Shown here: positions 1 through 15,714 of the stretch, in pieces
Layout: each line of letters opens with the position of its first letter
How positions within the stretch are numbered: the first letter of the stretch is position 1
Origin: a virus
Lineage: Duplodnaviria > Heunggongvirae > Uroviricota > Caudoviricetes
Strand: one strand, 5' to 3'
Virus record (IMG/VR): IMGVR_UViG_2778261537_000016
Span: 1-16,241 of that record
Length of the DNA stretch: 16,241 nucleotides
The notes under the pieces: model-generated
What the model was told of the DNA's origin: nothing
Seen by the model: the letters and a program-made list of their open reading frames with translations, nothing else
The model's database searches: none
Program-made: the position numbers and the translations under genes

Positions 1-1017
1 CTATGTTGCCATTGTAGCTAAGGGATTAAAGCGCAGGGCCGTTTCAAGGTGGTCAGGTGCTAAGTGCGCGTAGCGCATGGTCATTTTTATGTCGTGATGC
101 CCAAGGATTTTCTGCAGAGCCAAGATGTTTCCGCCTGACATCATAAAGTGTGCTGCGAACGTATGACGCAGAACGTGTGTTAGTTGACCGCGTGGAAGCA
201 CGATAGAAGTCTTATCCATTACAGATAAAAACTGGAAGTAGCAGTCGGTGAAGAACTTGAAACCGTCCAGGGCAATGATTTCTTCATACAGCTCTTTGCT
301 AATCGGAATGCTGCGGTTCTTTTTGCCTTTTGTCCTGACAAACGTGATCCGGTATTTCGTGACCTGAGAACGGGTCAGGTTCACAGCTTCGCGCCAGCGG
401 GCACCGGTACTCAGACAGATTTTGACAACTAGGGCGAGTAGGGGGCTTTGGCGTTTGCAGTCGCACAAAAGCTCAGTGATTTGTTCATGTGTCAGCCAGG
501 CCATCTCTTTTTCTGCGATGGTGAATTTGCGCATGTTCTCCAATGGGTTTGGCGCAGTCCATTCTCCAAGTCGTGCCAGCTCGCTAAACACTCCGCTCAT
601 ATAGCTTTGCTCAAGATTGATAGTTACCGGGCTGGCTCCTTTCTTCCATTTTTCGCTAAAGTAGATTTCACCCGTCAGGCGTTTATCGCGATAGTGCGCG
701 AACATTTTAGATGTTAAATCAGTGGCGAGGGGATTTCCGAGAGCATCGACCATCAGGATCAGCTTGTCGTGAACATGCTCGCCTGCGGTCAGAGATTTTC
801 CGTGCAGCTTGTACCAGAGTTCGACGATATCTTTTAGCGTCCGGCGGTCTACCGATTCGCCCAGCCAGGGTTTCGCCTCAGTCTCATCCATCATGTGCCG
901 TTCAAACGCTAACGCTTCACCTTTACTAGCGAACTGCCTACGCACGCGGCGTCCGCTACGACCTGCGGGATAGCATTCACAAATCCATTTTCCGGTGGTG
1001 AGTTTTCGTACTGACAT
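1..1017 (-). CDS. int: Tyrosine site-specific integrase, P2/186 type
   Basis: ORF 1..1071 (-). C-terminal R...HxxR...Y tyrosine-recombinase signature (LRHTFAAHF ... MTMRYAHL). The N-terminus MSVRKLTTGKW...RRQFASKGEALAFE resembles P2-family integrases. Start chosen at the internal ATG at 1017 because AAGGAGG lies about 9 nt upstream on the minus strand. Stop codon is at 1-3, so the attachment site lies outside the window. Confidence 0.9.
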   Translation of the reverse strand: MSVRKLTTGKWICECYPAGRSGRRVRRQFASKGEALAFERHMMDETEAKPWLGESVDRRTLKDIVELWYKLHGKSLTAGEHVHDKLILMVDALGNPLATDLTSKMFAHYRDKRLTGEIYFSEKWKKGASPVTINLEQSYMSGVFSELARLGEWTAPNPLENMRKFTIAEKEMAWLTHEQITELLCDCKRQSPLLALVVKICLSTGARWREAVNLTRSQVTKYRITFVRTKGKKNRSIPISKELYEEIIALDGFKFFTDCYFQFLSVMDKTSIVLPRGQLTHVLRHTFAAHFMMSGGNILALQKILGHHDIKMTMRYAHLAPDHLETALRFNPLATMAT

Positions 1018-1047
1018 AAAAAATGCCCTCCTTTTGGAGAGCATTTT

Positions 1048-1067
1048 TACTGTATGTATAAACAGTG
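1048..1067. promoter_or_regulatory. LexA-box-like palindrome TACTGTATGTATAAACAGTG in the ASCH-int intergenic region
   Basis: CTGT (1050-1053), an 8-nt AT-rich spacer, then ACAG (1062-1065). It sits in the 79-bp gap just upstream of the int RBS (AAGGAGG, about 1025-1031) and start (1017). Confidence 0.45.
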
Positions 1068-1096
1068 TCAATATATGATGTTAAGAACCTTATACA

Positions 1097-1468
1097 TCAT
1101 AGGTATCGGTATGACTGCGGTGCTGTTATGTTGTCACCTAATGAACTTAGCAAACGTGGTTGTTCATAGACTTTCAAATCACCGATCTTAATCGCAAAGG
1201 CTTTATCCCTGCTTTGAAAGTAAGAATCAAAAAATTGTTTACTGATACCCGCATAACGGCTGGTTTTTTTCCAGACATTGCTGGGTTTATCTTCAATAAC
1301 ATCAGCAATATCGAACTCAGCAACAATCATCCCTACAGGCATTGTTGAATAAATAACCACAGATTTAACATCTGGATTTTTGAAGATTCCTTTTCTGAAC
1401 TCAAACTTTTTTGTTCCATCAAGAATCTTTTCAACAAATTCAGGTTTAATTGACAATAATACTTTCAT
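1097..1468 (-). CDS. ASCH-domain (PUA-like fold) protein
   Basis: 123-aa ORF. N-terminus MKVLLSIKPEFVEKILDGTKKFEFRK matches the characteristic ASCH start (MKxLSIKPEY/W..KI..G.K..E.R). Its start overlaps the end of the upstream gene by about 23 nt, and it ends 79 nt before int. Fold assignment is by eye. Confidence 0.6.
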   Translation of the reverse strand: MKVLLSIKPEFVEKILDGTKKFEFRKGIFKNPDVKSVVIYSTMPVGMIVAEFDIADVIEDKPSNVWKKTSRYAGISKQFFDSYFQSRDKAFAIKIGDLKVYEQPRLLSSLGDNITAPQSYRYL

Positions 1469-2531
1469 CTACAGCACCAAGTTTAATAATGTTGTCAAAT
1501 TCTCTGTCGGTCAATTTTAATACACCCCAATATGCTTGTGGATTTAAACCAACGTCTTCTATTAGTTTAGCACGAGTGATTCTTTTCGGTAAAGCAAGAT
1601 TATATGTAAAACTTATAATATAGGGGTATTTCTTTGTTTTATAAAAACTTCTCAATTCTGTTTCGGTAAATACACTATACCGAGCACAATATTTAATAAA
1701 ATCTTGCTCTGTTGGGAATGAAAAAATATCTCTAACATCTTCTACGACACATAGAGATGTAGCAACAGAACGATAATGAGCTGGACCTTTTTTATCTGAA
1801 GTTCGATAAATTACGAGAATGTCATGCATTTTTATATTTGCTACATCTTGCATGGCGCAGATGTAAATTTTTCTTATACTGTTAGCGTGAGACACGTCAG
1901 TAATAATATCTGGAGATTCAGTTATAAGTTTTGAGTCTGGGAATAGACGAGTATGAAAATCTGGATAAATAGATAGTAAGTATTTGTTTTCTTTATGTCT
2001 GTTGTTGATGAAGGGATAGTCGGCAAGAAGGTCTCCAGTGAGATCATCGGTGCTCATTTCTCTTACTAAAACATTTTCAATACCATTTTCAGATTCTTTT
2101 TTTCCGTATTTTATAAACCCATAATTTAAAAAAAGTTTAATCAGGTAATCATGCTTATCAAAAACTGTTACATATATATCGTTCACTTTTTCACTTAATG
2201 CGTGGTCAAATATCTTTTTCAAAAAACGTTGACCTCGCAATGTACCTTTCGTATTAAACTTAAAGGTCCCTATTTTGAGATGTTTTAAATCAGCCAATGA
2301 AGGGTTAACATCAGTAACCTCGCCATCTTCAATTTTTAGATACATGAATCCATCAATTGAATCATCCTCATTGTAGAGCACGTATGCTTTTTCTCTTAGA
2401 TCTTTTGCTTTTTTGTGAAACCATTCTACAAAACCAGCTTTATAGTCAGCTTTCAATGAGTCAAAAAAAGCATCGTCAAAGTTTACTTCATTAAAACTAA
2501 TGTGCTTTAAATTTTCCATTTTAATCTCCAT
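1446..2531 (-). CDS. GNAT-like (acyltransferase-fold) N-terminal domain fused to an uncharacterised C-terminal domain, possibly PUA/ASCH-like
   Basis: 361-aa ORF. Residues about 50-160 show a GNAT-like pattern (...GTLRGQRFLKKIFDHAL... IYVTVFDKHDYLIKLFLNYGFIKYG) with a degenerate motif A. The C-terminal 200 aa are unassigned; their beta-rich pattern loosely resembles the adjacent ASCH protein. A GGAG RBS precedes the second ATG, so the true start is probably 2519 (MENLK...). Visibly AT-rich. Confidence 0.5.
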   Translation of the reverse strand: MEIKMENLKHISFNEVNFDDAFFDSLKADYKAGFVEWFHKKAKDLREKAYVLYNEDDSIDGFMYLKIEDGEVTDVNPSLADLKHLKIGTFKFNTKGTLRGQRFLKKIFDHALSEKVNDIYVTVFDKHDYLIKLFLNYGFIKYGKKESENGIENVLVREMSTDDLTGDLLADYPFINNRHKENKYLLSIYPDFHTRLFPDSKLITESPDIITDVSHANSIRKIYICAMQDVANIKMHDILVIYRTSDKKGPAHYRSVATSLCVVEDVRDIFSFPTEQDFIKYCARYSVFTETELRSFYKTKKYPYIISFTYNLALPKRITRAKLIEDVGLNPQAYWGVLKLTDREFDNIIKLGAVDESIIVN

Positions 2532-2545
2532 GTCTCATTGAAAAG

Positions 2546-3625
2546 TCATTTTCTAAATTTAATGAAATTTGCGATTATATATAATGCTATTAACGATAGT
2601 GAACCGTAAATAAATAGGTTTTTATCTAAGCTTTCTGTTGGTACAAATTTCATAACAAATGTTATTGCTGCGCCGTAGAAAATGTATGCAAATATTTTGC
2701 TTAGTTTAGATTTCGTGTTTTTAAATTTTACGACGACAGAAAAATCATTAAGTCTCGAATTTATATCATTTGATATTTTCCAATGATATATCATTGGATC
2801 ATGAGACCCGAAAGATACGCCTTTGCTAAAATATTTTGTCCATGTCTCAGACTCTAAAATTCTTGAACCTTTATAATTTGAACCGGATGCGGAACAGTCA
2901 TCAACCATATCGCGGATTATAAAAATATGGCATTTCAAAGGGGTACAAGCGGCGCTAGCAAGAGTTGTGGCTATTTCGGAGGGCAGGTTTCTTTGCTCAT
3001 TAACCCTAAAATCGATGATATCAGACCGCTCAATACTACTCTTAAGGAAGAGATCTTTGGGGTAAAATGTTTTCACTAAAAGACCGATATCTTCTTTATT
3101 AATTTGGACACGGAATCTTAAATAGTGATTACAAGCATCTTCGGAAGAGAGACAATCCTTGAGTTTAAAGGCTAGTAAGGTGCCATTGTGGATTTTTGTT
3201 ATCTTGACTCTATGATCAAGCTCGCCGCCGCTAAATGATAACTTAGTATTAACAACTAAGTCTCCTTTATTGGCGAGCACTAATTTTAAATGTCTACCAT
3301 CTACTGTTTTAGTGTCAATAAGGTATTCATTGAAAACTGCAGTTACGAGATCTCTGCTTGATTCAAGGTTTTCACTAAGATCAGAAAAAAAATTATTTTC
3401 TTTTTCGAATGGTAGGAATATACATATTGCCCCATGCTTAGCAATGGTTTCATCTTCAGGCTTTTTGAATGTGATGCCAAAATCTAAATAGCCAAATTTA
3501 TGAGCGCTTATGTTCCAAAAATTAATATGCAACTCTTCAATGAAATTCTTATGTTCAGAGTTGTAGGTCGAGCCTGAACTACTATGATAATCCCTACACC
3601 CCCAGACCGCAAAACTTCGTGACAT
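2546..3625 (-). CDS. Membrane-anchored hypothetical protein: large N-terminal soluble domain plus C-terminal 2-TM hairpin
   Basis: ORF 2546..3685 (-). Start set at the ATG at 3625 (MSRSFAVWG...), which has AAGGAA about 7 nt upstream and does not overlap the repressor gene. The C-terminus has two hydrophobic helices (IFAYIFYGAAITFVMKF and LFIYGSLSLIALYIIANFI) and ends KFRK. No recognisable catalytic motif. Visibly AT-rich. Confidence 0.55.
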   Translation of the reverse strand: MSRSFAVWGCRDYHSSSGSTYNSEHKNFIEELHINFWNISAHKFGYLDFGITFKKPEDETIAKHGAICIFLPFEKENNFFSDLSENLESSRDLVTAVFNEYLIDTKTVDGRHLKLVLANKGDLVVNTKLSFSGGELDHRVKITKIHNGTLLAFKLKDCLSSEDACNHYLRFRVQINKEDIGLLVKTFYPKDLFLKSSIERSDIIDFRVNEQRNLPSEIATTLASAACTPLKCHIFIIRDMVDDCSASGSNYKGSRILESETWTKYFSKGVSFGSHDPMIYHWKISNDINSRLNDFSVVVKFKNTKSKLSKIFAYIFYGAAITFVMKFVPTESLDKNLFIYGSLSLIALYIIANFIKFRK

Positions 3626-3651
3626 ATCGATTTCCTTTGTCAGTAACGGTT

Positions 3652-4263
3652 TTAATTCAAATTGACCAGTAAGTAAAAATGGCATCGTGCAATTGGGTTT
3701 AGTTCACTGATAAAGCACTCAAATGAATGGCATGGATTGGGTGCTCCAACCTTGACTCTTCCTACAGGTATTCTCGTAAGTTCTCTAATACTCACTTTCC
3801 CTTCTATCTCTACCACCCACTTACCATCGGTCACTTCGTGAAAATGTTGATCAGCTAAATAGAGCTGATCTGAATCCATGATTACGATAGGTTTTCGCAA
3901 AGAATCTGGCACCAACGCTTTGTCGAGTAGGTAAAAATTTGAATCTAATAATTTCCCATCTTTGATTTTTTTTCGAGGTACGGAAAACAAATCAGCAAGA
4001 ACATTTTCATTTGCTGATTGGATACCTAAAGATTTTTGGGGTGGCTTAGGACTCCCAGTTCCAAATGAAAGCCACTCAACTGGGACGCCGGTCTCAATTG
4101 AGCACTTTATTATCCAGTCAGCAGGGAACACGTCTCTCATCCATCTGGTGCTCATCGTGCTTGTTGAAATCCCAAGCCGCTCACAAAGAGCCTTACGAGT
4201 ACTTACTCCGTAGGCCTCAAGCATACGAAGAATAGCCTCACGGCCACCATTGTTAAAATCCAT
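3652..4263 (-). CDS. CI-like immunity repressor (N-terminal HTH)
   Basis: 203 aa. N-terminal HTH-like segment (STRKALCERLGISTSTMSTRWMRD). AAGGAG sits 7 nt upstream of the ATG at 4263. It is divergent from an Apl/Cro-like gene across a promoter/operator region, the same layout as the 186 cI position next to int. No S24 Ser-Lys peptidase motif was seen. Confidence 0.7.
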   Translation of the reverse strand: MDFNNGGREAILRMLEAYGVSTRKALCERLGISTSTMSTRWMRDVFPADWIIKCSIETGVPVEWLSFGTGSPKPPQKSLGIQSANENVLADLFSVPRKKIKDGKLLDSNFYLLDKALVPDSLRKPIVIMDSDQLYLADQHFHEVTDGKWVVEIEGKVSIRELTRIPVGRVKVGAPNPCHSFECFISELNPIARCHFYLLVNLN

Positions 4264-4288
4264 TAATGCTCCTTTGGAACCTTACATG

Positions 4289-4316
4289 TTGACAAACTCC
4301 AAATGAGACGTAATAT
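4289..4316 (+). promoter_or_regulatory. Sigma70-type early (pR-like) promoter, TTGACA-N16-TAATAT
   Basis: TTGACA at 4289-4294 and TAATAT at 4311-4316. It is oriented toward the Apl/Cro-like gene that starts at 4397. Confidence 0.55.
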
Positions 4317-4338
4317 TGCTACTGAAGCTCATTTGGAG
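4297..4338. promoter_or_regulatory. Candidate operator: perfect 11-bp inverted repeat CTCCAAATGAG-N20-CTCATTTGGAG
   Basis: Arms at 4297-4307 and 4328-4338 are exact reverse complements. They bracket the -10 element and the predicted transcription start of the early promoter. Confidence 0.55.
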
Positions 4339-4396
4339 TCTTCACTGTTGAACACCGCTAGACACGGTTTACTTACTTAAAAAGGAATCTTGCATC

Positions 4397-4618
4397 ATGA
4401 CTCCTCACATTTCAATCACGTTGACTGTTCCTTCCGTATCAATTGAAAAATATAGCGAACTTACTGGGCTATCAATTGACACAATCAATGACATGCTAGC
4501 GGATGGCCGCTTGATACGGCACCGCTTACGCAAAGATAAAAAGCGCGAAAAAGTTATGATCAACATTGCGGCTATGACTGTCGATGCGCTCTCAGATTGC
4601 AACGTGTCCATCAATTAG
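4397..4618 (+). CDS. Apl/Cro-like small HTH DNA-binding protein
   Basis: 73-aa ORF, first gene of the rightward operon and divergent from the repressor. HTH-like segment YSELTGLSIDTINDMLADGRL. GGAA lies upstream of the ATG. Confidence 0.6.
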   Translation: MTPHISITLTVPSVSIEKYSELTGLSIDTINDMLADGRLIRHRLRKDKKREKVMINIAAMTVDALSDCNVSIN

Positions 4619-4650
4619 TTCGATTTTGAGACCGACTGAGGGCAATGACT

Positions 4651-5154
4651 ATGTTTGATTATCAAACCTCCAAACATGCGCACTTTGATGCGGCTTGCCG
4701 AGCATTTGCGATTGAGCACAATCTGGAAGATGTGGCCGCTGCTGTTGGCATGAGGCCACAGATCCTGCGCAACAAATTGAATCCAGCACAGCCACACCGT
4801 TTAACCTGTGACGAGCTTTTAGCTATTACGGATTACACCGAAGATGCGCGTTTACTGGATGGAATGCTGGGGCAGATTAACTGCCTTCCATCCGTACCAG
4901 TGAACAATGCCACAGAAGGCAACATGCAGTTGTGCGCACTGAGTGCCACAGCCTGTGTGGGCGCAATTGCTGGGGAAGCCGTATCCACTGGTCATATGAC
5001 CGCCGCCCGCCGTACACAAATTCTGGATCGCGCTCGCGATGCAATCCGTAGCTTATCCGTGCTGGCTTATACCGTTGAAAGCCGTATCCAGTCTGCGCCT
5101 GTTCTGGCCGCAGCGGTGGATTTGGTGACGGCTAACGCCACCGGCTTGATGTGA
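4651..5154 (+). CDS. cII: CII-like lysogeny-establishment regulator (phage 186 CII family)
   Basis: ORF 4645..5154. The sequence MFDYQTSKHAHFDAACRAFA...LRNKLNPAQPH closely resembles my recollection of the 186 CII N-terminus, and the length (167-169 aa) matches. Start is at 4645 or 4651; GAGGG lies just upstream. Confidence 0.7.
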   Translation: MFDYQTSKHAHFDAACRAFAIEHNLEDVAAAVGMRPQILRNKLNPAQPHRLTCDELLAITDYTEDARLLDGMLGQINCLPSVPVNNATEGNMQLCALSATACVGAIAGEAVSTGHMTAARRTQILDRARDAIRSLSVLAYTVESRIQSAPVLAAAVDLVTANATGLM

Positions 5155-5163
5155 GGGAGCACC

Positions 5164-5391
5164 ATGAAAGCGTTTGTTACTTACCTCAAAAAAGAATCAC
5201 CAGCCATGCAACGGCCAAGCGGTTCAACGGGCTGGATAGAACTGCCGAACAGTCAGCGCTGGAATCCTAGCCACACGTATAAATTCAATGCGCATGAGTC
5301 TGTTCGAATGAAAGGCGGGGTGGTTTTACGTTTCTTGCCAACAAAAGTCCGTCGCCTGGTTAGGTGTATAGGGGGGCGCTATGGCAATTAG
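5164..5391 (+). CDS. Hypothetical early protein (75 aa)
   Basis: ORF with a GAGGGA RBS upstream, co-directional and closely spaced within the early operon. No recognisable domain. Confidence 0.4.
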   Translation: MKAFVTYLKKESPAMQRPSGSTGWIELPNSQRWNPSHTYKFNAHESVRMKGGVVLRFLPTKVRRLVRCIGGRYGN

Positions 5392-5809
5392 TCAGGAACA
5401 GCAACAGCGCGGACTGGATCAGATTAAAAAGATTCGCCGCAAATACTTCAATACCAGCAGTGAGGCTGCTGACTGGTGGGACAAATTAACACCGGAATGG
5501 CGCGGGGTAGTTCTCCATGCCGCCGCTGTTAATTCTGGCTTGAGTGTATTCAAAGCCCACTTAAGCAAATGCTGCTGGCGGGAACTGTTTGAGCGTCTGG
5601 ATTACCGGGCAATGATTCAGCTGCGCTGCGGCATTTCCCGTGCGCGTCTGACGATGAATGGATTCGGGTCATTGCGTGACAGTGATTTTTCTAAAAGTAC
5701 CGCGAACCGTCCAATAAAGCGGGCTTATCCAATCAATAACAATCGGGGTCCGCAGATGATTATCGCGCCTCATATCGTCCATAAGTTACAACAACAGGGG
5801 AATCTCTGA
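5381..5809 (+). CDS. Hypothetical early protein (142 aa)
   Basis: ORF with a G-rich RBS (AGGGGGG) upstream. It overlaps the upstream ORF by 11 nt and its stop overlaps the next start. No recognisable domain. Confidence 0.45.
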   Translation: MAISQEQQQRGLDQIKKIRRKYFNTSSEAADWWDKLTPEWRGVVLHAAAVNSGLSVFKAHLSKCCWRELFERLDYRAMIQLRCGISRARLTMNGFGSLRDSDFSKSTANRPIKRAYPINNNRGPQMIIAPHIVHKLQQQGNL

Positions 5810-6210
5810 TGGCCATTATTTCCGTTGAAGGTAAATCGTTAGGGGCTGAGCTGGCCGTGTGGGGCGTTCCACATAATTATGCCGTGGCGTTTGCAGAGAA
5901 AAGCACCAGCAAAAACGGTCGCATTGCGCTGCATCCGTTCTTCTTTAATGACACTGAGCACATGACTAATCCGCGTCACTGGCTGGCAATCAATGCCGCT
6001 TTCTGGTGCTGCGTGTACCGCGAGGCCGAAAGCAAAGAAGCACAGGTTGAAGCGCTGGCTGGGATCCGCGCAATTTTCTACACGGCCGGTGCGTTGGGTG
6101 TTGGCGAAATTAAAGCACTGATCCAGGAGTGGTGGCGGACAACGTACGAGCTGCACCTTATTCCTGCACCGAACCATTCCGCCGTCACTGTACAACCCGC
6201 TTTTCACTAA
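5809..6210 (+). CDS. Hypothetical early protein (133 aa)
   Basis: ORF with an AGGGGA RBS. Its start overlaps the stop of the upstream ORF. No recognisable domain. Confidence 0.45.
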   Translation: MAIISVEGKSLGAELAVWGVPHNYAVAFAEKSTSKNGRIALHPFFFNDTEHMTNPRHWLAINAAFWCCVYREAESKEAQVEALAGIRAIFYTAGALGVGEIKALIQEWWRTTYELHLIPAPNHSAVTVQPAFH

Positions 6211-6278
6211 TTAACAACATGATTTTTTTTGGCCACAGCTTAGGTGGCCGGGGATTCTTTTGCCTTAAGGAAACCAAA

Positions 6279-6512
6279 ATGCACATGACACGTCAGGATT
6301 TACCCGCAACAAAATCAGGCACTGACCTGCTGGCTATGCTCACCCAAGCCACTCAGGAAGGTAAAGCCGCTGCTGCTGATCTGTGTTCCACCCGTCTGGA
6401 TAAGCTGGCCACCCATGCAGCCAATGAAGGTTTAAGCGCAACGGAAATCATTGAGTTAATCCGCGAAGAAGCCGCAGCGATTTGCAGTAAAGGCGGTGCA
6501 GCATGGCAGTAA
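6279..6512 (+). CDS. Hypothetical small protein (about 77 aa)
   Basis: Internal ATG of ORF 6129..6512 with AAGGA 7 nt upstream (MHMTRQDLPATKSG...). The 5' extension to 6129 overlaps the preceding gene and is probably not translated. Its end overlaps the dam start by 10 nt. Confidence 0.45.
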   Translation: MHMTRQDLPATKSGTDLLAMLTQATQEGKAAAADLCSTRLDKLATHAANEGLSATEIIELIREEAAAICSKGGAAWQ

Positions 6513-7372
6513 AAACTCCGCTTAAGTGGGTGGGCAGCAAAGCCCGCCTTATGCCGCAGTTGCTTCCCCATCTGCCAGAGGGTAAGCGCCTGATAGAACC
6601 TTTTGCCGGTTCCTGTGCTGTCATGATGAATACGGATTATGACGAGTATCTGATAGCTGATGTGAATCCTGACCTTGTTAATCTGTATAAGACGATGGCT
6701 TATCACACTGATGCATTGCTCATTGAGCTGGAGGCTTTATTTTCTGCCGGTTCATTAGGTGATGAAGAAAACAGGGCAATTTTCTATTACGCGGTGCGTG
6801 ATGCCTTCAACCAGTCCGGCAAATCCTTTGGTTCTGAATCTGTGGAAGCTGCGGCGCGTTTTCTTTATCTGAATCGTCACTGCTTCAATGGCCTGTGCCG
6901 ATACAATCGCCGTGGTCAGTTCAATGTTCCGTTTGGTAAGTACAAAAAAACCTACTTTCCTGCTGATGAAATCCGCGCTTTTGCAGAAAAAGCGAAACGT
7001 GCAACGTTCATTACTGCCAACTATTCAGAAACGCTTGATTTGGTAAGGGACGGGCATGACGTTGTTTATTGTGATCCGCCTTACCTGACTGATACCGACA
7101 ATTTCACCGCTTACCATGAGCGCGGTTTTTCGCACATGGATCAGGGACGGCTGGCGCGTAAGCTGCGTCGCCTGGCTGAGCGCGGGATTAAGGTTGTCGC
7201 GTCAAACAGCGATCTGGAAATGGTGCATTACCTGTATTCAGGATTCGAAGCGGTTCGGGTCAATGCGCCACGCAGTGTGGGTGCAGCAGCTGCAAGCCAG
7301 AAAGTGGCCGCAGAGCTCATTCTGAAGTCACCTGCTAACCCGGCGATCGACGTTCGGGCGGTGGGGGCATGA
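6503..7372 (+). CDS. dam: DNA adenine N6-methyltransferase, Dam/D12 class
   Basis: 289 aa. Collinear with E. coli Dam motifs: LKWVGSKARL (cf. LKWAGGKYPL), EPFAGS (AdoMet binding), FLYLNRHCFNGLCRYNRRGQFNVPFGKYKK, and catalytic DPPY (VVYCDPPYL). No restriction endonuclease gene is adjacent. Confidence 0.9.
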   Translation: MAVKTPLKWVGSKARLMPQLLPHLPEGKRLIEPFAGSCAVMMNTDYDEYLIADVNPDLVNLYKTMAYHTDALLIELEALFSAGSLGDEENRAIFYYAVRDAFNQSGKSFGSESVEAAARFLYLNRHCFNGLCRYNRRGQFNVPFGKYKKTYFPADEIRAFAEKAKRATFITANYSETLDLVRDGHDVVYCDPPYLTDTDNFTAYHERGFSHMDQGRLARKLRRLAERGIKVVASNSDLEMVHYLYSGFEAVRVNAPRSVGAAAASQKVAAELILKSPANPAIDVRAVGA

Positions 7373-7581
7373 TGACGGAAATTATCACCGGCATTTATGC
7401 CTTGTTTGCCTGTATTACTTTCGCCTTTCTCTTATGGGACGAATGCCAGGACGAATTTGATCACGATGCTGAGGACTTAGGGTTAATCACTCTGAGTGCG
7501 GTTTTTTGGCTACCACTGGTAGCGGCTGTACTTGTGGCTTTCCTGATTGATTTCTGGCGTAAGTGGGTTAACCGTGGTTGA
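7369..7581 (+). CDS. Small predicted membrane protein (70 aa, two TM helices)
   Basis: The start overlaps the dam stop (ATGATGA). Two hydrophobic helices (IITGIYALFACITFAFLLW and LSAVFWLPLVAAVLVAFLIDFW). A GGGGG RBS lies upstream. Confidence 0.5.
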   Translation: MMTEIITGIYALFACITFAFLLWDECQDEFDHDAEDLGLITLSAVFWLPLVAAVLVAFLIDFWRKWVNRG

Positions 7582-7582
7582 T

Positions 7583-9598
7583 ATGCTGGAGCCTGGCCAA
7601 CACCAGACCGTCAATGCCTGGCGGCGTGAAACCTTTGCGCTTGGTACCCCGTCAGATGCAACGATCACAGAACGCCGTTTGTGGGCTGTAAACCCACAGG
7701 ATTATGAATGGCGTTCCCAGTACCTGCATGAAATACCCGACTGGTTAGCCGGGTATTTTGGCAACCGTTACGAAAAGCTGCTGGCTGGTCGTGACGGGCG
7801 TCGCCGTGCCAATACGTTCCTGCGCAAAACTATCGGCGGGAATGTATTGCCACGTCTGCGCAAAGTGGCTGCACGTTACAAACTGGCCGCTGATGCACTT
7901 GATCTTCCTTTCGGTAAGTCGCTGGAGCGACTGCCGTCACTTGACCGCCCGGAACTCAAAAAACTGGCTGGCCAGATATCTGGCTGGATCTCCCAGTCAC
8001 TGTATGACTTTACCGATCAGTTTGTGGGCAGCACTGACGATGCCGCAGAGCTGCGCCGCCGTACGCTGGAGTCTTACCGCCATTTATGCACGTGTTCCCT
8101 GATGCTGAACAATCAACCGCCGTACTGGGCTGAACATGAAGCTAATGGCGGGCAACTGGAAACGCGTAAGGCTGAATCCGGGATCCTCCGCATGATGGCA
8201 CCTGAATGGTGGTATCTGCGTCTTAAGCGGGCGCGGGATATGCAGCGTGAGCATATGGCCATTGCAGTGGGGCAAGTACAGAAAGCGGCCAGCGCTTATG
8301 TGTCCCGTAAAACCTTGGGCGAATGGATAGACCAGAAAAAGCGGAACCTTGAGTTCTTCAAAAAGTTTGACCTGCTGAATGATGAAGGGCTGCGTATTGC
8401 ACTGGACAGCATGGTGCATCGCAGCGTTGCTAATCCGGCGATCCGTCGCTGTGAGCTAATGGTAAGAATGAGAGGATTTGAAGATATGGCCAATGGAGAA
8501 GGACTGGCCGGTGAGTTTTACACCATCACCGCGCCATCGCGATTCCATGCGGTACACAGCAAAGGGGGCTTTGTTTCACAGTGGGATGGCTGCACTCCGC
8601 AGGATACCCAGCGCTACTTATGTGGTGTATGGGCGAAAGCCCGCGCCGCTATTTCCCGTGCAGGTATCCATGTTTTTGGTTTTCGTGTAGTAGAGCCTCA
8701 CCACGATGGCACACCGCACTGGCACATGCTGCTTTTTATGCGTCCTGGTGACGTGGATACCGTGCGCGATATTCTTTGTTATCACGCCAGAATTACTGAC
8801 TCCGAAGAACTGCAAACGCCAAACGCGCTAAAGGCACGTTTCCATGTTGAAGCCATCGATCCCGCTAAAGGCTCGGCTACGGGTTACATAGCCAAATATA
8901 TATCCAAAAACATTGATGGTTTTGCGCTGGATGGTGAACAGGACGACGAAACAGGGGAGAACCTACGGGACATGGCCAAGTCCGTTTCTGCATGGGCTTC
9001 ACGCTGGCGCATTCGCCAGTTTCAGCAGATTGGTGGTGCGCCGGTGACTGTCTGGCGCGAGTTGCGCCGGTTACGTGATCAGGTACTGACTGACCGAAGA
9101 ATGGATTCGGTTCTGGCTGCTGCGGATGTTGGTGACTGGGCGGCGTACACCCAGGCGCAGGGTGGCGCACTGGTTTCCCGCCGTGACCTGGTTGTTCGTC
9201 TGGCTTATGAAATCACGGAACAGGGTAATGAATACGCAGAGGACGTGCAGCGCGTTCAGGGTGTCTATTCTCCATTGGTTCCAGATTCAGCGGTATGTAC
9301 GCGCTTGGTGAAGTGGCAGAAGGTTGCGAAGTTGGCCGAAGCGCCAGCGGAGGCGGGTTTTTCTGGCGGCAGCGCCGCCCCTTGGAGTTCTGTCAATAAC
9401 TGTACGGAGGGTGGAACCCGCAGACGGTTAAAACTGGAATTGCGAAGCCGGGGTTTTGAAGGTTCTGACGATGAAATAGCCATTCTCATGCGGGGCAGTG
9501 GTTTGAGATTTGGCCAGGCGGCGTTGATTTACCGTAATGGCAGGTTACAGGAGACACGAAACGAGCCAATGCACGAGCTGTGGCCGGGGTGGTTGTAG
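7583..9598 (+). CDS. Rolling-circle replication initiator endonuclease (P2 gpA / 186 A family)
   Basis: The ORF tool starts at a TTG at 7547; the first ATG is 7583, directly after the upstream stop. HUH metal-binding motif HHDGTPHWHMLLF and twin active-site tyrosines in GSATGYIAKYISKNIDG, as in P2 A. Length about 670 aa. Confidence 0.85.
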   Translation: MLEPGQHQTVNAWRRETFALGTPSDATITERRLWAVNPQDYEWRSQYLHEIPDWLAGYFGNRYEKLLAGRDGRRRANTFLRKTIGGNVLPRLRKVAARYKLAADALDLPFGKSLERLPSLDRPELKKLAGQISGWISQSLYDFTDQFVGSTDDAAELRRRTLESYRHLCTCSLMLNNQPPYWAEHEANGGQLETRKAESGILRMMAPEWWYLRLKRARDMQREHMAIAVGQVQKAASAYVSRKTLGEWIDQKKRNLEFFKKFDLLNDEGLRIALDSMVHRSVANPAIRRCELMVRMRGFEDMANGEGLAGEFYTITAPSRFHAVHSKGGFVSQWDGCTPQDTQRYLCGVWAKARAAISRAGIHVFGFRVVEPHHDGTPHWHMLLFMRPGDVDTVRDILCYHARITDSEELQTPNALKARFHVEAIDPAKGSATGYIAKYISKNIDGFALDGEQDDETGENLRDMAKSVSAWASRWRIRQFQQIGGAPVTVWRELRRLRDQVLTDRRMDSVLAAADVGDWAAYTQAQGGALVSRRDLVVRLAYEITEQGNEYAEDVQRVQGVYSPLVPDSAVCTRLVKWQKVAKLAEAPAEAGFSGGSAAPWSSVNNCTEGGTRRRLKLELRSRGFEGSDDEIAILMRGSGLRFGQAALIYRNGRLQETRNEPMHELWPGWL

Positions 9599-10225: not shown

Positions 10226-11287
10226 TCATGCCGCACCCTTATCCGTTGATTCTGTGTAACTTAAATCAAAGTTAAGGTGCAGCCTTTCCGGTATTTCGGG
10301 ATCGTTGTTCACCGCAGTCATAAACCGGCGCTGAATGGGTGCTATTTCGCTTTTCTTGTAAATCCTTTCCGCCTTTTCAACATCCCCCAGGCCGGCAGTG
10401 TTCTGCGGGACAATTCCGGCCAGCCCTGCGGGAAAGCGGTGTGCGTTGAGAATGTCCTGTGCGCTGATGTTTTTGATGTTGGCAAATTCATCTTTTGCAG
10501 AGATATCCCCCATTTCAATAAACTTGATCGCATCCCCATCCCCGCCTGGAATGTTCACCAGAATGGTGGAGAAGTTGCCGATACCTTTGCTGTCCCGCAG
10601 CTGCTGTTCAATCTCTTCTTCCATTTCATCCGTCATGCTGGGATCGCGCGTGTAGAGAATGCCGCCAGTATGGGCGCCGTTGTGGTAGTAACGGCGGCGA
10701 AAAATCACGGCTTCACTGTTAAGCAATGCCGAGTGTACGCCGCCGATATAGTCGGGCAGCCCGTAAATATGCTGCTGCGGGTCGTACATCTTGATAAAAA
10801 TGATATCTTCTTGCGGCCATACCTGCGGTTCACCGTCCTGCAATACCACATAATCGCCGGGCTGGTCTGCGGCGTTGTCCCTGACTTTACGGCGGCGAAT
10901 ATACAGGCCGGGTAAAGGTTCCAGGGCAATCACATCTCCCCATCCGTTGCGGATTTTGCCAATCGCAATATCCCCGAAGGTTGTATAGTCAAACGCTGCG
11001 GCTTCCAACTGGTCGTAAGTCAGGCCACCGCCCAGATAATCAGACACAATCATATTTTTCCGGGCGTGGATAATGCCGCCATGCTGACCGTTCAGATTGA
11101 TAAGCTGTGCCAGTGCCAGCCGGTCAATCGGCTGGGTAAAGTGATCGGCGGCATTGTCGTACCAGATGTCGCGGTAATCCGTGCCGGTGGTCAGGACGGG
11201 TTCCGGTTTGCCGAATGTGATGATGCTCATTTTTTTGGATTTATCGCCGCGCGGGTTGCGCTTAACGAAGCGGTTTTTTTTACTCAT
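10226..11287 (-). CDS. Portal protein (P2 gpQ family)
   Basis: 353 aa. Collinear with P2 Q as I recall it: MSKK..., ITFGKPEPVL (cf. FTFGEPVPVL), LNSEAVIFRRRYYHNGAHTG (cf. LNESATLFRRKYYENGAHAG), LRDSKGIGNF, KDEFANIKNISAQDILNAHRFP, GLGDVEKA. Its start overlaps the terminase stop by 4 nt. Confidence 0.9.
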   Translation of the reverse strand: MSKKNRFVKRNPRGDKSKKMSIITFGKPEPVLTTGTDYRDIWYDNAADHFTQPIDRLALAQLINLNGQHGGIIHARKNMIVSDYLGGGLTYDQLEAAAFDYTTFGDIAIGKIRNGWGDVIALEPLPGLYIRRRKVRDNAADQPGDYVVLQDGEPQVWPQEDIIFIKMYDPQQHIYGLPDYIGGVHSALLNSEAVIFRRRYYHNGAHTGGILYTRDPSMTDEMEEEIEQQLRDSKGIGNFSTILVNIPGGDGDAIKFIEMGDISAKDEFANIKNISAQDILNAHRFPAGLAGIVPQNTAGLGDVEKAERIYKKSEIAPIQRRFMTAVNNDPEIPERLHLNFDLSYTESTDKGAA

Positions 11288-12441
11288 GCAGCCTCTTTCC
11301 TTACACCCCAGCGGGATTTCGGTTTATTTTCGTAGTTGAGTGGTTCGTTATGCAGGGCGTGGGTAATTGCCCAGAACGCCTCTGCGTGGCCAGTGTCCTG
11401 GCTGCGGTCAGCGACAAATGTCATGGCGTTACCACTTTGCGTGGTGGTGCGGCGTACAGCCATAAAGCTGGCCGGGATCTCTTTCAGGTTCTTGTCCCAT
11501 TCAATACGCTGACTTTCCACCACGTCCGCCGCTTTCAGTACCAGCTGATTTTTCGTGTTCATGTCGTAACGAATGGCGACGGCCACGCGCATGGCAAAAT
11601 GCTGGATGTTGTCAAAAACACCCTGGCCAATACCGGTAACGTCCACTCCCAGATAGGTGAAGTTGTATTTTTTAAACAGGAGTTCGATCTGCCTGGCCTG
11701 ATAGCGGAAGTTCATGCCCTTCCAGTTAATGACCTTCAGAACGCGGAATTTCTCTGCGGCATACATCGGCGGGGCAATAATCACAAAACACGACAAATCG
11801 CCGCTACGTGCCGGGTCAAAGCCTCCCCATACTGGCCTGTCACCGAATGGCCGCGCAGCGTCCGGGTTGTGATCCTGCCAGGTGTCCACCTCCACGCCGC
11901 AGGCTTCCAGGTCTGAAAAGCTGAATACGGAATCCTTGCTGTCCACGAAGACGCACATATAGAGCATGTTGAAGGTGGCCGTGTTGTAGCGGTTGCGCAG
12001 CTTCTCGATGTTGGCCAGGTTGAAGCCACCTGCAATGGCATCCTCCATCGTGATGACATAGCGCCACTGCCCATCCGGGCAAAGCCGTCCGCCGTCGCGC
12101 ATGTCATCAAAAGACGGGAACTGGGCGGCCGCGCGTTTTTTGCTGCCCTGTTTCCATTCCTCACCCGTCCAGAACGGGTAAGCCTGGTGCGTTTTGGCCG
12201 ATGGTGTTGAAAAGTAGGTGGTGCGCCATTTGTCATGGGTGGCCATTGCGCTGGCCACTTCGTTAAGCCTGGCGAAGTTAGGCACCCAGAAATATTCGTC
12301 ACAGTACAGGTGGCCACTGTAGGACTGGGCTGTGTTCTTGTTGGTTGAGAGAAAACGCAGTTCAGCGCCGTTGCTGAGGCGGATCGGGTTGCCGGTCAGC
12401 GTTATGCCAAAATACTGTTCTGCAATGTTGACGATGTAAGA
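11284..12441 (-). pseudogene. Terminase large subunit (P2 gpP family), 5'-truncated; N-terminal region including the expected Walker A is absent
   Basis: ORF 11284..12285 plus an in-frame open extension upstream. The translation (...NGAELRFLSTNKNTAQSYSGHLYCDEYFWVPNFARLNEVASAMATHDKWRTTYFSTPS...) matches the central and C-terminal part of P2 P, including a Walker-B-like YCDEYFW. The frame hits a stop at about 12472-12474 with no ATG and no Walker A, and AT-rich non-coding DNA follows. Confidence 0.75.
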
Positions 12442-12644: not shown

Positions 12645-13184
12645 ATGAATCCGTTTAACGCCATTACTTTTGCTGCATTGTGCGGGCCTCTGGCTTGTCC
12701 TGCTGCTATGGCGCAGGAGTTCATCATCCAGCCAGCCCCTGTGATTGCTAAACCTTTTGAGTACTCTCCTTCTGTTGAGGAATTCTCACGCAGAATGGAA
12801 GAGGGTAAGGAGATCTTGCAAAAGTTAACAATTGCAGCAGATGACTACTATATCTGTTTGATTGATCTTAATAGCCAAGATGCTCGCGAGTTTGTTTCCA
12901 AAAACGGGACAGATACGACAGAGGCATGCGAAATGTTCCTGCGTGCTTTTGAAGAAGAAGTGAAGCGTACAATTGAATCGCCTCTGCCTGAATTTATCAG
13001 GTCAGAACTGAAGGTTTACTGGCGTCATATTGCTAAAGCTCGCTCATCTGTCACTCGCCTTAACAATTACATAAAGAGCATATTTAAAGAAACTGTTACG
13101 TTTAGCGGGCGCGCGGATCTTGCTGGAATTGCAGCACTAGCTAGTCACACATCAAATAAGCTAAAATCGATGCAATTTCACTAA
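12645..13184 (+). CDS. Hypothetical protein with signal-peptide-like N-terminus (179 aa); upstream partner of the YafO-like gene
   Basis: N-terminus MNPFNAITFAALCGPLACPAAMA/QE is hydrophobic with an AxA-type cleavage site but lacks a positively charged n-region. The rest is charged and helical with no recognisable domain. GAGG RBS. Stop is 16 nt before the next gene. Confidence 0.5.
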   Translation: MNPFNAITFAALCGPLACPAAMAQEFIIQPAPVIAKPFEYSPSVEEFSRRMEEGKEILQKLTIAADDYYICLIDLNSQDAREFVSKNGTDTTEACEMFLRAFEEEVKRTIESPLPEFIRSELKVYWRHIAKARSSVTRLNNYIKSIFKETVTFSGRADLAGIAALASHTSNKLKSMQFH

Positions 13185-13200
13185 CCGATAGCGGACGACC

Positions 13201-13635
13201 ATGCATCTAGAAGTCTCTATTAATCCAGAAACTAGAGCTGAATTTTTTGATGAAGTTTTTCTCAAATTCCCGGAGCTAGAGTCTTCTATCATTGATGATT
13301 TCAAGAGATACAAAGCAACCGGTGAGCTTCCGCATTATTTCGGTAGGGACGTTGCGTATACTCAGCCCTATGGTGCTTTTCGGGCTGGGTTGATGCATAT
13401 CCATCTTTGTCTACCGCCAAACAAGTTTCCCGAGAAACTTCCACAACCGGATAGGGTCTGCAAGAAAGGTGATCCTGATAATGATGCTTGTCTTGTGTAT
13501 GTCCAAGGTGAGCTTTATGAGAATAAATATTCACTCATTGCTATTATGTATCCCGATGCACATGAAAAAGCAAGAAAACATGATGTGATGAGCTATCTGG
13601 CGCGAATTGCCCAGAATTATAAAGATGAAAACTAA
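13201..13635 (+). CDS. YafO-family type II toxin-like protein (ribosome-dependent mRNA interferase family)
   Basis: 144 aa. Collinear with E. coli YafO as I recall it: YK..G.LP..FGRD..Y, HIHL, D.A(C/H)LVY.QG, LIAI..P..H..AR. The gene is followed immediately by a strong terminator. Confidence 0.6.
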   Translation: MHLEVSINPETRAEFFDEVFLKFPELESSIIDDFKRYKATGELPHYFGRDVAYTQPYGAFRAGLMHIHLCLPPNKFPEKLPQPDRVCKKGDPDNDACLVYVQGELYENKYSLIAIMYPDAHEKARKHDVMSYLARIAQNYKDEN

Positions 13636-13970: not shown

Positions 13971-14543
13971 TCATAATTCTGTGCTGGTGGCAGGAATTAG
14001 TTTCTGCCAGATAGCGGAAACATATTTTGCCTGATGACGGGCATCAGCCAGGGCGTTGTGCCGTTCGCCATCGAAAGGCATGTCCATTTTTGGGTCGAAT
14101 CCGATGGAACGCCCAAGCGTAACGATCGTGCGTACATCGTGGTCATTCCAGTACGCCCACGGGCAGATTTGTCCTGCTCGCTCGTAAGCTCCACGTAAAA
14201 TTACGTTGTCGAAGGTGGCCCCGTTACCCCAGACTTTTAAATATTTTGTATTGTCTGCATGCTGATTAATGAAATGGCTCAGTTCAGAGAGTGCATCGCT
14301 GATCGACAAAGTATCATCAATACAGATTGCAGCTCGTGCTTCAGAGCTCTGTTTCAACCACCACAGGATGGTATCGCCGTCAGGTGTAGCTCCTTGCTTC
14401 ATAGCACTGTCCAGGCTAACAACCGTATAGAATTCTTGTCCGATGTCTCCGGTTTCTGGAGTGAAGAACACCGCGCCAATGGAAACGATCGGTGCATCCT
14501 TATTTTTCCCCATCGTCTCAAGGTCGATCATTAAGTTGTTCAT
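13971..14543 (-). CDS. DnaQ-like 3'-5' exonuclease (DEDDh family)
   Basis: Exo I motif IDLETMG, Exo II WGNGATFD, Exo III HNALADA. The ATG at 14543 has a GAGGTGA RBS; the ORF tool's 14546 is a GTG. Its start overlaps the upstream stop by 1 nt. Confidence 0.8.
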   Translation of the reverse strand: MNNLMIDLETMGKNKDAPIVSIGAVFFTPETGDIGQEFYTVVSLDSAMKQGATPDGDTILWWLKQSSEARAAICIDDTLSISDALSELSHFINQHADNTKYLKVWGNGATFDNVILRGAYERAGQICPWAYWNDHDVRTIVTLGRSIGFDPKMDMPFDGERHNALADARHQAKYVSAIWQKLIPATSTEL

Positions 14544-15352
14544 CACTTCACCTCTTGTGATGGTTTTGCTGCAAAATACTCGATACCTTTATCCCAGATA
14601 GATTTTATGGTCGACCACGTGACTGGCACTTTAATTTCAATACGTCCGCTCCCGTCACAGGTATCGCAATCATCATCGCCAAAGCATTCCAGGCAGCTTA
14701 TAAACGTAGTTTCTGAAAATTCACCGGATAGCGCCCCCTTAGCGCCGTTCTCGGCTGTTAGTCTCTTCGGCACCATAACCCAACCATCCGGAGTTACCGG
14801 AGAGTTGCCAGACAGTGCGTTCTGCAATCGTTCCAGCTTAACGTATTCCTGAACCCTGTTTCCGTCGCACGCCTGAAGCCATTGCACAGCCTTTTGCGCA
14901 TCAGTGTGAAAGGCACAAGTGCGACCGTCATCAAATTGCATTTCGTAGAGGTCAGCAACCTGTTTAAACTGCGTTTGTGGCAACTTGTAAGCCTGGCTTG
15001 CAGGTACGGCACCATAGAGCATGGCAGCGCGGCAGGCGTTCCAGCCTTCATCAAAACCGACTATGCCATTATTTAAAGACGGACGAGCATCTGGCACCAC
15101 CGGCACTGGCTTGGCTATATATAGCGGCTGAACATACCAGCCCTTTGATAACCAACTGTCAGCAATGTTTTTACTCCTGGTTATTGCCGGAATACCTAAG
15201 CCATTGTCTGAATGCAGCCATGCCACCGGATCCTCTTCCAGCGATGCCAGAGCAATTTCATAAGCACGGCGCTCAACATTGTCTCGCACGTCCATGCTGC
15301 TGATTCGTTCTTTGATTTCTTTAATCAGTTCTTTATCGGTAAATGTGGTCAT
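14543..15352 (-). CDS. Hypothetical prophage early protein (269 aa) with a C-terminal Cys-rich motif
   Basis: Operon member with coupled start and stop. C-terminal CLECFGDDDCDTCDGSGRIE resembles a small zinc-ribbon (CxxC...CxxC). No other motif recognised. Confidence 0.55.
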   Translation of the reverse strand: MTTFTDKELIKEIKERISSMDVRDNVERRAYEIALASLEEDPVAWLHSDNGLGIPAITRSKNIADSWLSKGWYVQPLYIAKPVPVVPDARPSLNNGIVGFDEGWNACRAAMLYGAVPASQAYKLPQTQFKQVADLYEMQFDDGRTCAFHTDAQKAVQWLQACDGNRVQEYVKLERLQNALSGNSPVTPDGWVMVPKRLTAENGAKGALSGEFSETTFISCLECFGDDDCDTCDGSGRIEIKVPVTWSTIKSIWDKGIEYFAAKPSQEVK

Positions 15353-15714
15353 TATGCTCCAGCCTCCGGTGCTTTTGGCATTACTGCCCAGTGAGTGATG
15401 TTGACGTTTTCAAGGTCCCCGACCTGAAATGTCCACTGCCATTCTCCGGTTTCTTTTTGCCCCCATGTATACCAGAGAGAACGCCAGCCAATCAGCCAGC
15501 CTTCTCCATTAGCATCAAATAACAGAACACTTTCATTCGCTGGCGGCAGTTCAGCTGACACTGGTATTACTTTGTTTTCCAGTGCTGCACATTTAGCTTC
15601 AAGCGCATTAAATTTACGCACCAGGTATTCAGCATCCGTTTCATTCACTTTCAGATCTCGCGGTACACATTTCCCGCGAAGAAATCCTTCCATTTCGAAA
15701 ACATTCATGCGCAT
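15352..15714 (-). CDS. Hypothetical prophage early protein (120 aa)
   Basis: ORF with GGAG upstream of the ATG at 15714. Trp-rich C-terminal half (GWLIGWRSLWYTWGQKETGEWQW). It overlaps the upstream gene by 10 nt. Confidence 0.5.
   Translation of the reverse strand: MRMNVFEMEGFLRGKCVPRDLKVNETDAEYLVRKFNALEAKCAALENKVIPVSAELPPANESVLLFDANGEGWLIGWRSLWYTWGQKETGEWQWTFQVGDLENVNITHWAVMPKAPEAGA

Follow-up and report, generated by a model that had tools for sequence, protein, structure and literature searches.

A membrane-anchored protein joins a GNAT-PUA/ASCH gene pair in the cI-int slot of a 186-like prophage remnant: a candidate anti-phage cassette

What does an AT-rich, three-gene insert of about 2.5 kb do between the repressor gene cI and the integrase gene int of a 186-like prophage? 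We addressed this question for the viral record IMGVR_UViG_2778261537_000016, of which the full stretch of 16,241 nucleotides (nt) is called the window in the following. Its three cassette genes, named orf1, orf2 and orf3, all lie on the minus strand and encode, respectively, a protein with two transmembrane (TM) helices, a GNAT fusion protein and an ASCH protein, as an earlier reading of the sequence (hereafter the original prediction) had correctly assigned. We find that the orf2-orf3 pair is an already catalogued, unvalidated candidate, and that orf1 and the three-gene form are what is new here. The cassette is likely to be a conflict system, i.e., to act in defence or as a toxin-antitoxin system. 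With somewhat better than even confidence we favour a more specific reading, in which it is horizontally acquired cargo in a cI-int hotspot and is expressed in the lysogen as an anti-phage (abortive-infection) module of toxin-antitoxin type.

Is the combination of genes as undescribed as the original prediction had supposed? This part of it stands only for the 2-TM gene and the three-gene form. orf2 matched the PADLOC model PDC-M11A (PDLC04419) at 6.9e-137, with residues 2-361 aligned to profile positions 6-357 of 357, and orf3, adjacent on the same strand, matched PDC-M11B (PDLC04425) at 1.4e-48; both matches are full length. PDC-M11, which is cassette CAS_00069, belongs to 145 PDC candidates that were chosen for being found embedded in BREX, DISARM or type I restriction-modification (RM) loci and that are described by their authors as untested (Payne et al. 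2024, bioRxiv 10.1101/2024.01.29.577857). It is defined as two genes; the cassette in the window adds orf1, which has no PADLOC model. Of the searches that had been suggested as a check of the original prediction, PADLOC matched orf2 and orf3 and Pfam matched orf3 (ASCH), and neither gave anything for orf1.

A second description of the pair is older. Bell et al. 2020 (PMC7641849), who give credit to Iyer et al. 2013, describe GNAT proteins that carry a C-terminal EVE domain and often an N-terminal PIN domain, and that are "almost always" encoded with an ASCH gene and often with an AAA_17 ATPase. They found GNAT-EVE to be common in gamma-proteobacterial prophages, predicted the operons to be toxin-antitoxin or conflict systems, proposed aminoacyl-tRNA as the GNAT-EVE target by analogy with GNAT toxin systems, and stated that none of the modules had been experimentally characterised (PMC7641849). 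orf2 has both the GNAT domain and the C-terminally fused EVE (PUA-like) domain of these operons, the ASCH gene follows directly downstream, and the locus represents the PIN-less form in a gamma-proteobacterial prophage. Neither a PIN domain nor an AAA_17 gene is present in the window, both of which are optional in the published description. The window differs further by its membrane partner, and a membrane partner of GNAT-EVE is not mentioned in Bell et al. 2020 (PMC7641849).

Finally, the pair carries names in a single phage GenBank record from 2025, PhiR47_2 (PV340567.1), where it is labelled "GevT toxin" and "GevA antitoxin" (58% identity to orf2 and 63% to orf3). In the literature searched, no paper was found behind these names, and no experimental paper for PDC-M11, GNAT-EVE or PhiR47; we therefore give the labels the weight of a depositor's annotation only. 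The PhiR47_2 genes show the same overlap arrangement and likewise stand just after cI, in a lambdoid instead of a 186-like backbone and in a two-gene form without orf1. In a tblastn search of sequenced phages, seven lambdoid E. coli phages were seen to carry the pair, at 58% identity, and unannotated twins of the PhiR47_2 pair occur in the lambdoid phages 4A7, D2, 1W, 3W and Lambda_4C10.

Relatives of orf2 fall into more than 1,800 clusters at 90% identity and occur in 406 of about 100,000 species representatives, from Proteobacteria, Bacteroidota, Firmicutes and other phyla. We assessed the linkage of the pair on the 80 best species-representative GNAT-EVE loci. An ASCH gene was present in 78 of these, the two exceptions ending at contig edges, and it usually shared 20-30 nt with the 3' end of the GNAT-PUA gene. 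Relatives of about 500 amino acids (aa) have an N-terminal extension of about 150 residues, which gave no Pfam match on the one protein scanned and is probably a PIN domain; AAA_17 genes of about 170 aa were recovered beside some relatives. Within E. coli the distribution is patchy, with the pair in 36 of 5,426 genomes.

We next consider the two proteins of the pair. orf2 has no Pfam match, and its structure is predicted with confidence (predicted local distance difference test, pLDDT, 89; predicted template modelling score, pTM, 0.87). Among PDB sequences its family profile reaches PaiA (1tiq) at 3e-4. The same search matched none of the aminoacyl-tRNA toxins of the TacT/AtaT/KacT type, for which solved structures are in the PDB. 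In their gene arrangement, TacAT, AtaRT, ItaRT and KacAT likewise combine a GNAT with a small overlapping partner gene. Compared with TacAT, AtaRT and KacAT, orf2 is with 361 aa twice the size of a typical GNAT toxin (about 170 aa) and has an additional PUA-like domain, and its partner is a downstream ASCH gene, not an upstream RHH/DUF1778 gene; a Pfam scan detected no RHH/DUF1778-type domain in orf1 or orf3. For acetylation of aminoacyl-tRNA by orf2 and relief of the resulting toxicity by the partner, which would follow by analogy, the support lies solely in the depositor labels on homologues.

orf3 exceeds the Pfam ASCH cut-off (29.7 bits against 21.2, E 1e-6) and has the GxKxxExR motif that is canonical for ASCH. 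Of the solved structures, ZmASCH (5guq) comes closest, matching over the full length at E 1e-9; it was also the sole match at E<=1, where no other ASCH entry appeared. In vitro, ZmASCH acts as a Mg-dependent RNase specific for single-stranded RNA, and both the binding and the cleavage of RNA require Tyr47, Lys53 and Ser128 (Kim et al. 2017, PMC5615036). In a phmmer alignment Y40 and S119 of orf3 align with Tyr47 and Ser128, i.e., these residues are kept, and Lys53 aligns with Gly46; the RNase activity is known only in vitro and only for ZmASCH, not for orf3. The PUA-like domains of orf2 and orf3 probably bind RNA or modified bases. As the comparison of the orf2 C-domain with the orf3 family by hhalign gave such low support (E 0.0015, 17% probability), an origin of the two domains by duplication is unproven.

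Some ASCH proteins, e.g., E. coli YqfB, hydrolyse N4-acetylcytidine (ac4C), and some GNATs write this modification. We considered orf3 as a YqfB-type N4-acetylcytidine amidohydrolase that undoes the GNAT reaction and dropped this assignment in view of the GxKxxExR motif and of ZmASCH as the only match among solved structures. The same chemistry would underlie the view that the prophage passively carries the pair as RNA-modifying housekeeping enzymes, e.g., a writer and an eraser of ac4C. We consider this highly improbable given the patchy, mobile distribution in E. coli, the AT-richness of the cargo DNA, the defence-island and hotspot contexts of the pair and the restriction of orf3 matches among solved structures to ZmASCH.

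What, then, is orf1? Searches of Pfam, PADLOC, PHROGs and NCBIfam yielded no significant match. When 48 diverse family members were scanned, none matched Pfam and one gave a weak PADLOC match, and a profile of the 48 found no sequence match in the PDB. The AlphaFold model (pLDDT 83, pTM 0.78) has a beta-rich domain at residues 1-305 followed by helices at 308-327 and 335-358, and these C-terminal helices coincide with the two top peaks of hydropathy (residues 311 and 337). Since orf1 has no N-terminal signal sequence and basic residues stand on both sides of the hairpin (KFKNTKSKLSK before, KFRK after), we infer that the beta-domain is cytoplasmic. orf1 is thus modelled as a cytoplasmic beta-sandwich with a predicted C-terminal two-helix membrane hairpin. 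Foldseek against viral structures retrieved only giant-virus ITIH and M1-aminopeptidase-like beta-sandwiches and was uninformative.

A word-index search for the orf1 family gave 31 clusters and a cross-phylum profile 88. Of 1.84 billion representatives scanned exhaustively with HMMER, 1,311 belong to the family at E<=1e-3 and 538 do so at E<=1e-30; these about 1,300 clusters are representatives at 50% identity. The matches are full length with a median of about 370 aa, and in 144 of the 146 top representatives the last 110 residues include one or more hydrophobic segments. Invariant or near-invariant across phyla are H33, N35, W37, D48, G50, P72, F98, N99, Y168, R170, R172, D205, R207, N209, R212, H233, R255, E258, W262, Y265, H281 and W282. 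This pattern of conserved residues suggests a ligand-binding or catalytic site and not a mere anchor.

Does orf1 belong to the module, or is it an unrelated neighbour? We looked up 12 orf1-family proteins (22-67% identity to orf1) from Serratia, Yersinia, Vibrio, Bacteroides and metagenomes; their loci lie both inside and outside prophages, in some cases adjoining RM genes. A GNAT(-EVE) gene was adjacent in all 12, and an ASCH gene was seen in all except one 3-kb contig, too short to judge. Likewise, the full trio was present in 10 of 12 viral contigs with an orf1-like gene; the other two are cut by contig ends, so that the count is ten of the ten evaluable. The linkage spans Proteobacteria, Campylobacterota and Bacteroidota and several gene orders, i.e., orf1-A-B and A-B-orf1 (A and B as in PDC-M11), ASCH-AAA_17-orf1-small GNAT with a convergent GNAT-PUA gene, and orf1-small GNAT-GNAT-PUA. 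In nearly all cases a GNAT-encoding gene follows orf1 directly, with a 4-nt overlap in many instances or with gaps of 3-14 nt. Pairwise identities of orf1 and orf2 are correlated (r = 0.875; Mantel test, 0/2000 permutations), part of which reflects shared host phylogeny, and orf1 diverges faster, with 19-27% identity where orf2 keeps 41-58%. In other genomes the trio thus occurs again as one unit, in this prophage slot as well as outside prophages; the original prediction had proposed this co-occurrence as a check.

The opposite view is that two unrelated cargoes stand side by side, i.e., a GevTA-like pair and an independent membrane "moron", orf1, for instance a superinfection-exclusion protein. 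Small prophage-expressed membrane proteins are a common exclusion device, and orf1 is found in only 16 of the 80 GNAT-EVE loci, i.e., it is missing from about 80% of GNAT-EVE/ASCH loci, and is absent from all 50,697 sequenced phages searched, including those that carry the pair. Moreover, E. coli prophages can hold another gene in its place: in strain WP5-W18-ESBL-11, the one that we opened of 29 E. coli genomes whose shorter match ends inside orf2, an unrelated 260-aa gene replaces orf1 (L002 6519-7301), and the 28 others probably share it. The 260-aa protein has no TM segment, a C-terminal CxxC...CxxC motif and only a weak DUF3644 match, and it stands beside the pair in none of the other collected loci. 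From its absence in most loci and its replacement here we conclude that orf1 is dispensable for the core, and from the replacement that the position upstream of the GNAT gene is itself variable. Against two independent cargoes speaks that no orf1-family gene was seen without an adjacent GNAT(-EVE) gene, or without ASCH where this could be judged, that the linkage holds across phyla, gene orders and non-prophage settings, that orf1 co-diverges with orf2, and that the 4-nt overlaps and short gaps to the following GNAT gene suggest coupling. Two unrelated cargoes are therefore quite unlikely in our view, and orf1 is very probably a functional part of the module, with any single specific role for it being tentative at best.

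Several loci with orf1-like genes deserve description in their own right. In Vibrio, Sulfuricurvum and Methylophilus, the GNAT that is coupled to an orf1-like gene is a small standalone protein of 155-165 aa, with a full GNAT-PUA + ASCH pair nearby (L010 7179-7646, L110 6173-6640, L061 1701-2186 and L036 7455-7952 for the standalone-GNAT loci). The Vibrio operon ASCH-AAA_17-orf1-GNAT adjoins TrbL and lies in a conjugative element. PIN-bearing trios are found in defence islands: one follows a cluster of Pkinase, DUF4007, 1070-aa and 366-aa genes and precedes a PIN_8 protein (L009 1-5936), and others stand before a DNA methylase accompanied by RE_HaeIII, or before a methylase accompanied by an AAA_5 protein (loci of P0194 and P0162; L118 8779-11029). 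Elsewhere the pair or trio adjoins RM genes, a PIN_8 protein, HNH nucleases, PDC-S14 or a Pkinase/DUF4007 cluster.

When would the cassette be expressed? The coordinates of its genes and of their boundaries are collected in Table 1. The cI stop at 3652 is 26 nt away from orf1, 14 nt separate orf1 from orf2, and orf2 and orf3 overlap by 23 nt, from which translational coupling is probable. The layout of the original prediction is thereby confirmed apart from the gap between orf3 and int, which is 79 nt and not about 25 nt, since the true int start is ATG 1017. orf1 starts at ATG 3625 with an AAGGAA Shine-Dalgarno sequence 7 nt upstream, and its homologues open with MS[RK]SF. A longer orf1 from ATG 3685 was rejected, as this start lies inside cI, which it would overlap, and has no support from homologue starts. 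No terminator-like sites were found on the minus strand anywhere in 900-4700. In phage 186, cI and int are transcribed together from the lysogenic and establishment promoters. As the cassette lies within this leftward cI-int unit, with tiny spacers and no terminator, it should be made in the lysogen, like rexAB after lambda cI, and cI would be the upstream gene of the same transcription unit. In the orf3-int spacer, on the int strand, a sigma-70-like match (1043-1071; TTGACA, 17 nt, AAAAAT; 10/12 positions) could be a separate int promoter that was created or retained downstream of the insert; such matches occur at chance frequency region-wide.

How did the genes come to stand between cI and int? 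Their composition agrees with the horizontally acquired, AT-rich cargo of the original prediction: the GC content is 0.275-0.385 over 1201-3600 versus 0.50-0.59 over 4601-9400 (backbone roughly 52%), and Pfam confirmed cI and int as the flanks. Also the adjacency of these two genes in related elements, on which that prediction relied, was found, as the slot is empty in the E. coli SC477 prophage, where cI and int abut. In strain 300709 it holds HEC-01A/B (2e-154, 6e-63), an AriA-like (PARIS-like) ATPase with a DUF4276 protein, and HEC-01 is among the systems described in Payne et al. 2024 (10.1101/2024.01.29.577857). MFDS1019527 has a split P-loop fragment with PDC-S49 (3e-106), WP5-W18-ESBL-11 the 260-aa gene with the pair, and MB20 orf1 with the pair (junction coordinates in the siblings 300709, MFDS1019527 and SC477: L095 4596-6329, L097 4178-5961, L096 4987-6625). 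From the empty or differing cargo among siblings we conclude that the cI-int junction of 186-like prophages is a swap site for defence cargo. In PhiR47_2 the pair is directly downstream of cI, the position where lambda carries rexAB. In the P2-like Salmonella phage SopEPhi it corresponds to orf12/orf13, annotated "unknown", between gpA and portal (L122 3944-5408). A cI-int defence hotspot has been reported in Vibrio K139-like P2 relatives (Rousset 2022), and the gpA-portal interval is the main P2 defence hotspot according to the literature, including Rousset 2022. The pair is thus seen in three phage hotspots, i.e., after cI in lambdoid phages, between gpA and portal in SopEPhi and between cI and int here. 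The SopE-converting phage SopEPhi is a ready experimental system for the two-gene form.

This hotspot context bears on the possibility that the cassette is purely an addiction module, which stabilises the prophage remnant by post-segregational killing and plays no part against other phages. The labels toxin and antitoxin given by the depositor would fit, as would the overlap of the two genes in the usual toxin-antitoxin manner, the retention of a prophage that is nonetheless truncated, and the classification of the operons as putative toxin-antitoxin systems by Bell et al. (PMC7641849). Yet the pair occupies three known phage defence hotspots and shares its slot with HEC-01 and PDC-S49, and its PIN-bearing versions lie in or adjoin RM systems. 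We hence regard pure addiction as unlikely, and it overlaps with the anti-phage reading because many toxin-antitoxin systems double as abortive-infection systems.

Alternatively, the pair might serve the phage itself as a device for nucleic-acid modification or counter-defence, in which GNAT-PUA acetylates a (modified) base of DNA or RNA, by which host restriction is escaped, and ASCH reads or regulates the mark, along ideas of Iyer 2013 and Bell 2020. The two PUA-like reader domains of the system and the D12 Dam-type methylase on the same element would be in line with such a role. The place right after cI, however, favours expression in the lysogen over lytic growth, the closest characterised ASCH protein, ZmASCH, acts on single-stranded RNA, the same pair is found in chromosomal defence islands without phage, and a membrane-anchored partner is hard to fit to DNA modification. 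Taken together, we hold this explanation to be very unlikely.

For the anti-phage module that we favour, the following course of events can be proposed. Transcription from the cI promoters would run through the three genes as well as through cI and int, so that their products would be present in the lysogen. With their overlap, the GNAT-PUA and ASCH genes resemble a toxin and its regulator or antitoxin, in agreement with the depositor labels and with Bell et al., and orf3 would accordingly restrain or regulate orf2. Upon infection by another phage, the GNAT might be released, or targeted via the pocket of its PUA-like domain, and might then acetylate an amine on a nucleic-acid-linked substrate. 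Aminoacyl-tRNA, at its alpha-amine, has the best precedent; RNA or a DNA base would be the alternatives. Acetylation would stop translation or replication and arrest the growth of the infected cell. orf1, with the invariant site of its beta-sandwich rich in Arg, Asp, Asn, His and Glu and with its hairpin tether to the inner membrane, would be a dedicated accessory that brings the module to the site of phage DNA entry at the membrane or activates it there, or else a second, membrane-acting effector. It shares a soluble domain with TM helices, a phage-conflict operon and prophage expression beside cI with the 2-TM effectors of CBASS and Pycsar and with RexB; it differs from them by the C-terminal hairpin and large beta-sandwich, and has no sequence or fold likeness to PADLOC models or solved effectors. 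It is a tentative possibility that the orf1 family is an unrecognised, widespread and ligand-binding third component, which couples acetyltransferase signalling to the inner membrane, either as a sensor for entering phage genomes or as a membrane effector gated by acetylation or by a ligand.

A number of points weigh against the anti-phage reading. PDC-M11 is explicitly untested by its authors (10.1101/2024.01.29.577857), and two other PADLOC PDC candidates gave no defence when deleted in their native host, as published. The toxin and antitoxin labels GevT and GevA are a depositor's annotation only, the orf2 GNAT has no detectable sequence kinship to solved GNATs except PaiA and 8osp, and the putative antitoxin is, by its sequence, not of the RHH/DUF1778 type. 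The fold of orf1 resembles only non-catalytic beta-sandwiches and gives no clue to its activity; besides the absence of orf1 from most GNAT-EVE/ASCH loci, the 29 E. coli genomes noted above match only the shorter span. Co-transcription of the cassette is argued from the spacers and the absence of terminators, and a search for internal promoters in the 900-4700 region gave promoter-like matches at the chance level of shuffled sequence. Moreover, the host prophage is truncated, and cassette expression may therefore differ from that in an intact 186-type lysogen.

The GNAT-PUA + ASCH pair is among the more widespread candidate conflict systems without a published mechanism, and the locus places it in an enterobacterial 186-type slot where it is clonable and open to coliphage challenge. 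The link of the orf1 family to the module across phyla could reveal how infection is sensed or how the cell is killed. If the third-component reading of orf1 were true, it would add to phage defence an architecture of three components and a protein fold-function class that are both new. Furthermore, the cI-int junction is documented as a swap site that is found empty or filled with HEC-01, PDC-S49 or two forms of the cassette.

Table 1. Positions of the cassette genes, their domains and their boundaries in the window.
Feature	Position	Strand	Evidence
int (tyrosine integrase), downstream boundary	1..1017	-	Pfam Int_N 4e-32, Phage_integrase 7e-21; AAGGAGG Shine-Dalgarno and ATG 1017
orf3, 123 aa, standalone ASCH, "GevA"-like	1097..1468	-	Pfam ASCH 1e-6, PDC-M11B 1e-48, ZmASCH 5guq 1e-9
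Overlap of orf2 3' end and orf3 5' end, 23 nt	1446..1468	-	Coordinates; similar overlap in most of 80 species-representative loci
orf2, 361 aa, GNAT fused to PUA-like	1446..2531	-	PADLOC PDC-M11A; GNAT-EVE / "GevT"-like
orf2 C-terminal PUA-like (EVE/ASCH-type) domain, residues ~170-361	1446..2024	-	
orf2 N-terminal GNAT acetyltransferase domain, residues ~1-165	2037..2531	-	
orf1, 359 aa, membrane-anchored protein	2546..3625	-	AAGGAA Shine-Dalgarno 7 nt upstream of ATG 3625; homologue starts MS[RK]SF
cI-orf1 spacer, 26 nt, holds orf1 Shine-Dalgarno AAGGAA	3626..3651	-	No room for promoter; no terminator
cI (186-type repressor), upstream boundary	3652..4263	-	Pfam Phage_CI_repr 4e-25, Phage_CI_C 1.5e-29

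The element that carries the cassette was analyzed from the remainder of the window. The window starts at the stop codon of the tyrosine integrase gene and continues with a 186-type early region, in which cI, an apl-like open reading frame, cII, a Dam-type methylase, replication protein A, ogr, portal and a partial large terminase were found. The large terminase gene (11284-12320) has lost its N-terminus, about 260 residues, and encodes 333 aa versus about 591 aa in relatives; the match to the Terminase_6N profile begins at profile position 108 of 215. No capsid, tail or lysis genes follow the terminase fragment in the window. From the truncated terminase and the missing structural genes we conclude that the 186-like element is a defective remnant of about 12.3 kb, which retains int, the cassette, cI and the early region. 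The methylase gene (6503-7372) encodes a D12-class N6-adenine (Dam-type) methyltransferase and, here and in the E. coli siblings alike, separates the early genes from replication gene A.

Just beyond the prophage break, an AT-richer stretch holds a 179-aa open reading frame on the plus strand (12645-13184) without Pfam match, which is followed after 16 nt by a YafO-family toxin gene (13201-13635; PF13957, 2e-21). Together, these genes (12645-13635) probably form a yafNO-like toxin-antitoxin pair where two elements meet. The minus strand of 13971-16241 encodes an Rv2179c-like 3'-5' exoribonuclease, a 269-aa protein of no assigned family, a DUF551 protein and a YfbR-like protein. Such genes are typical of a different, lambdoid-type prophage, and we hence conclude that two prophage fragments abut in the window.

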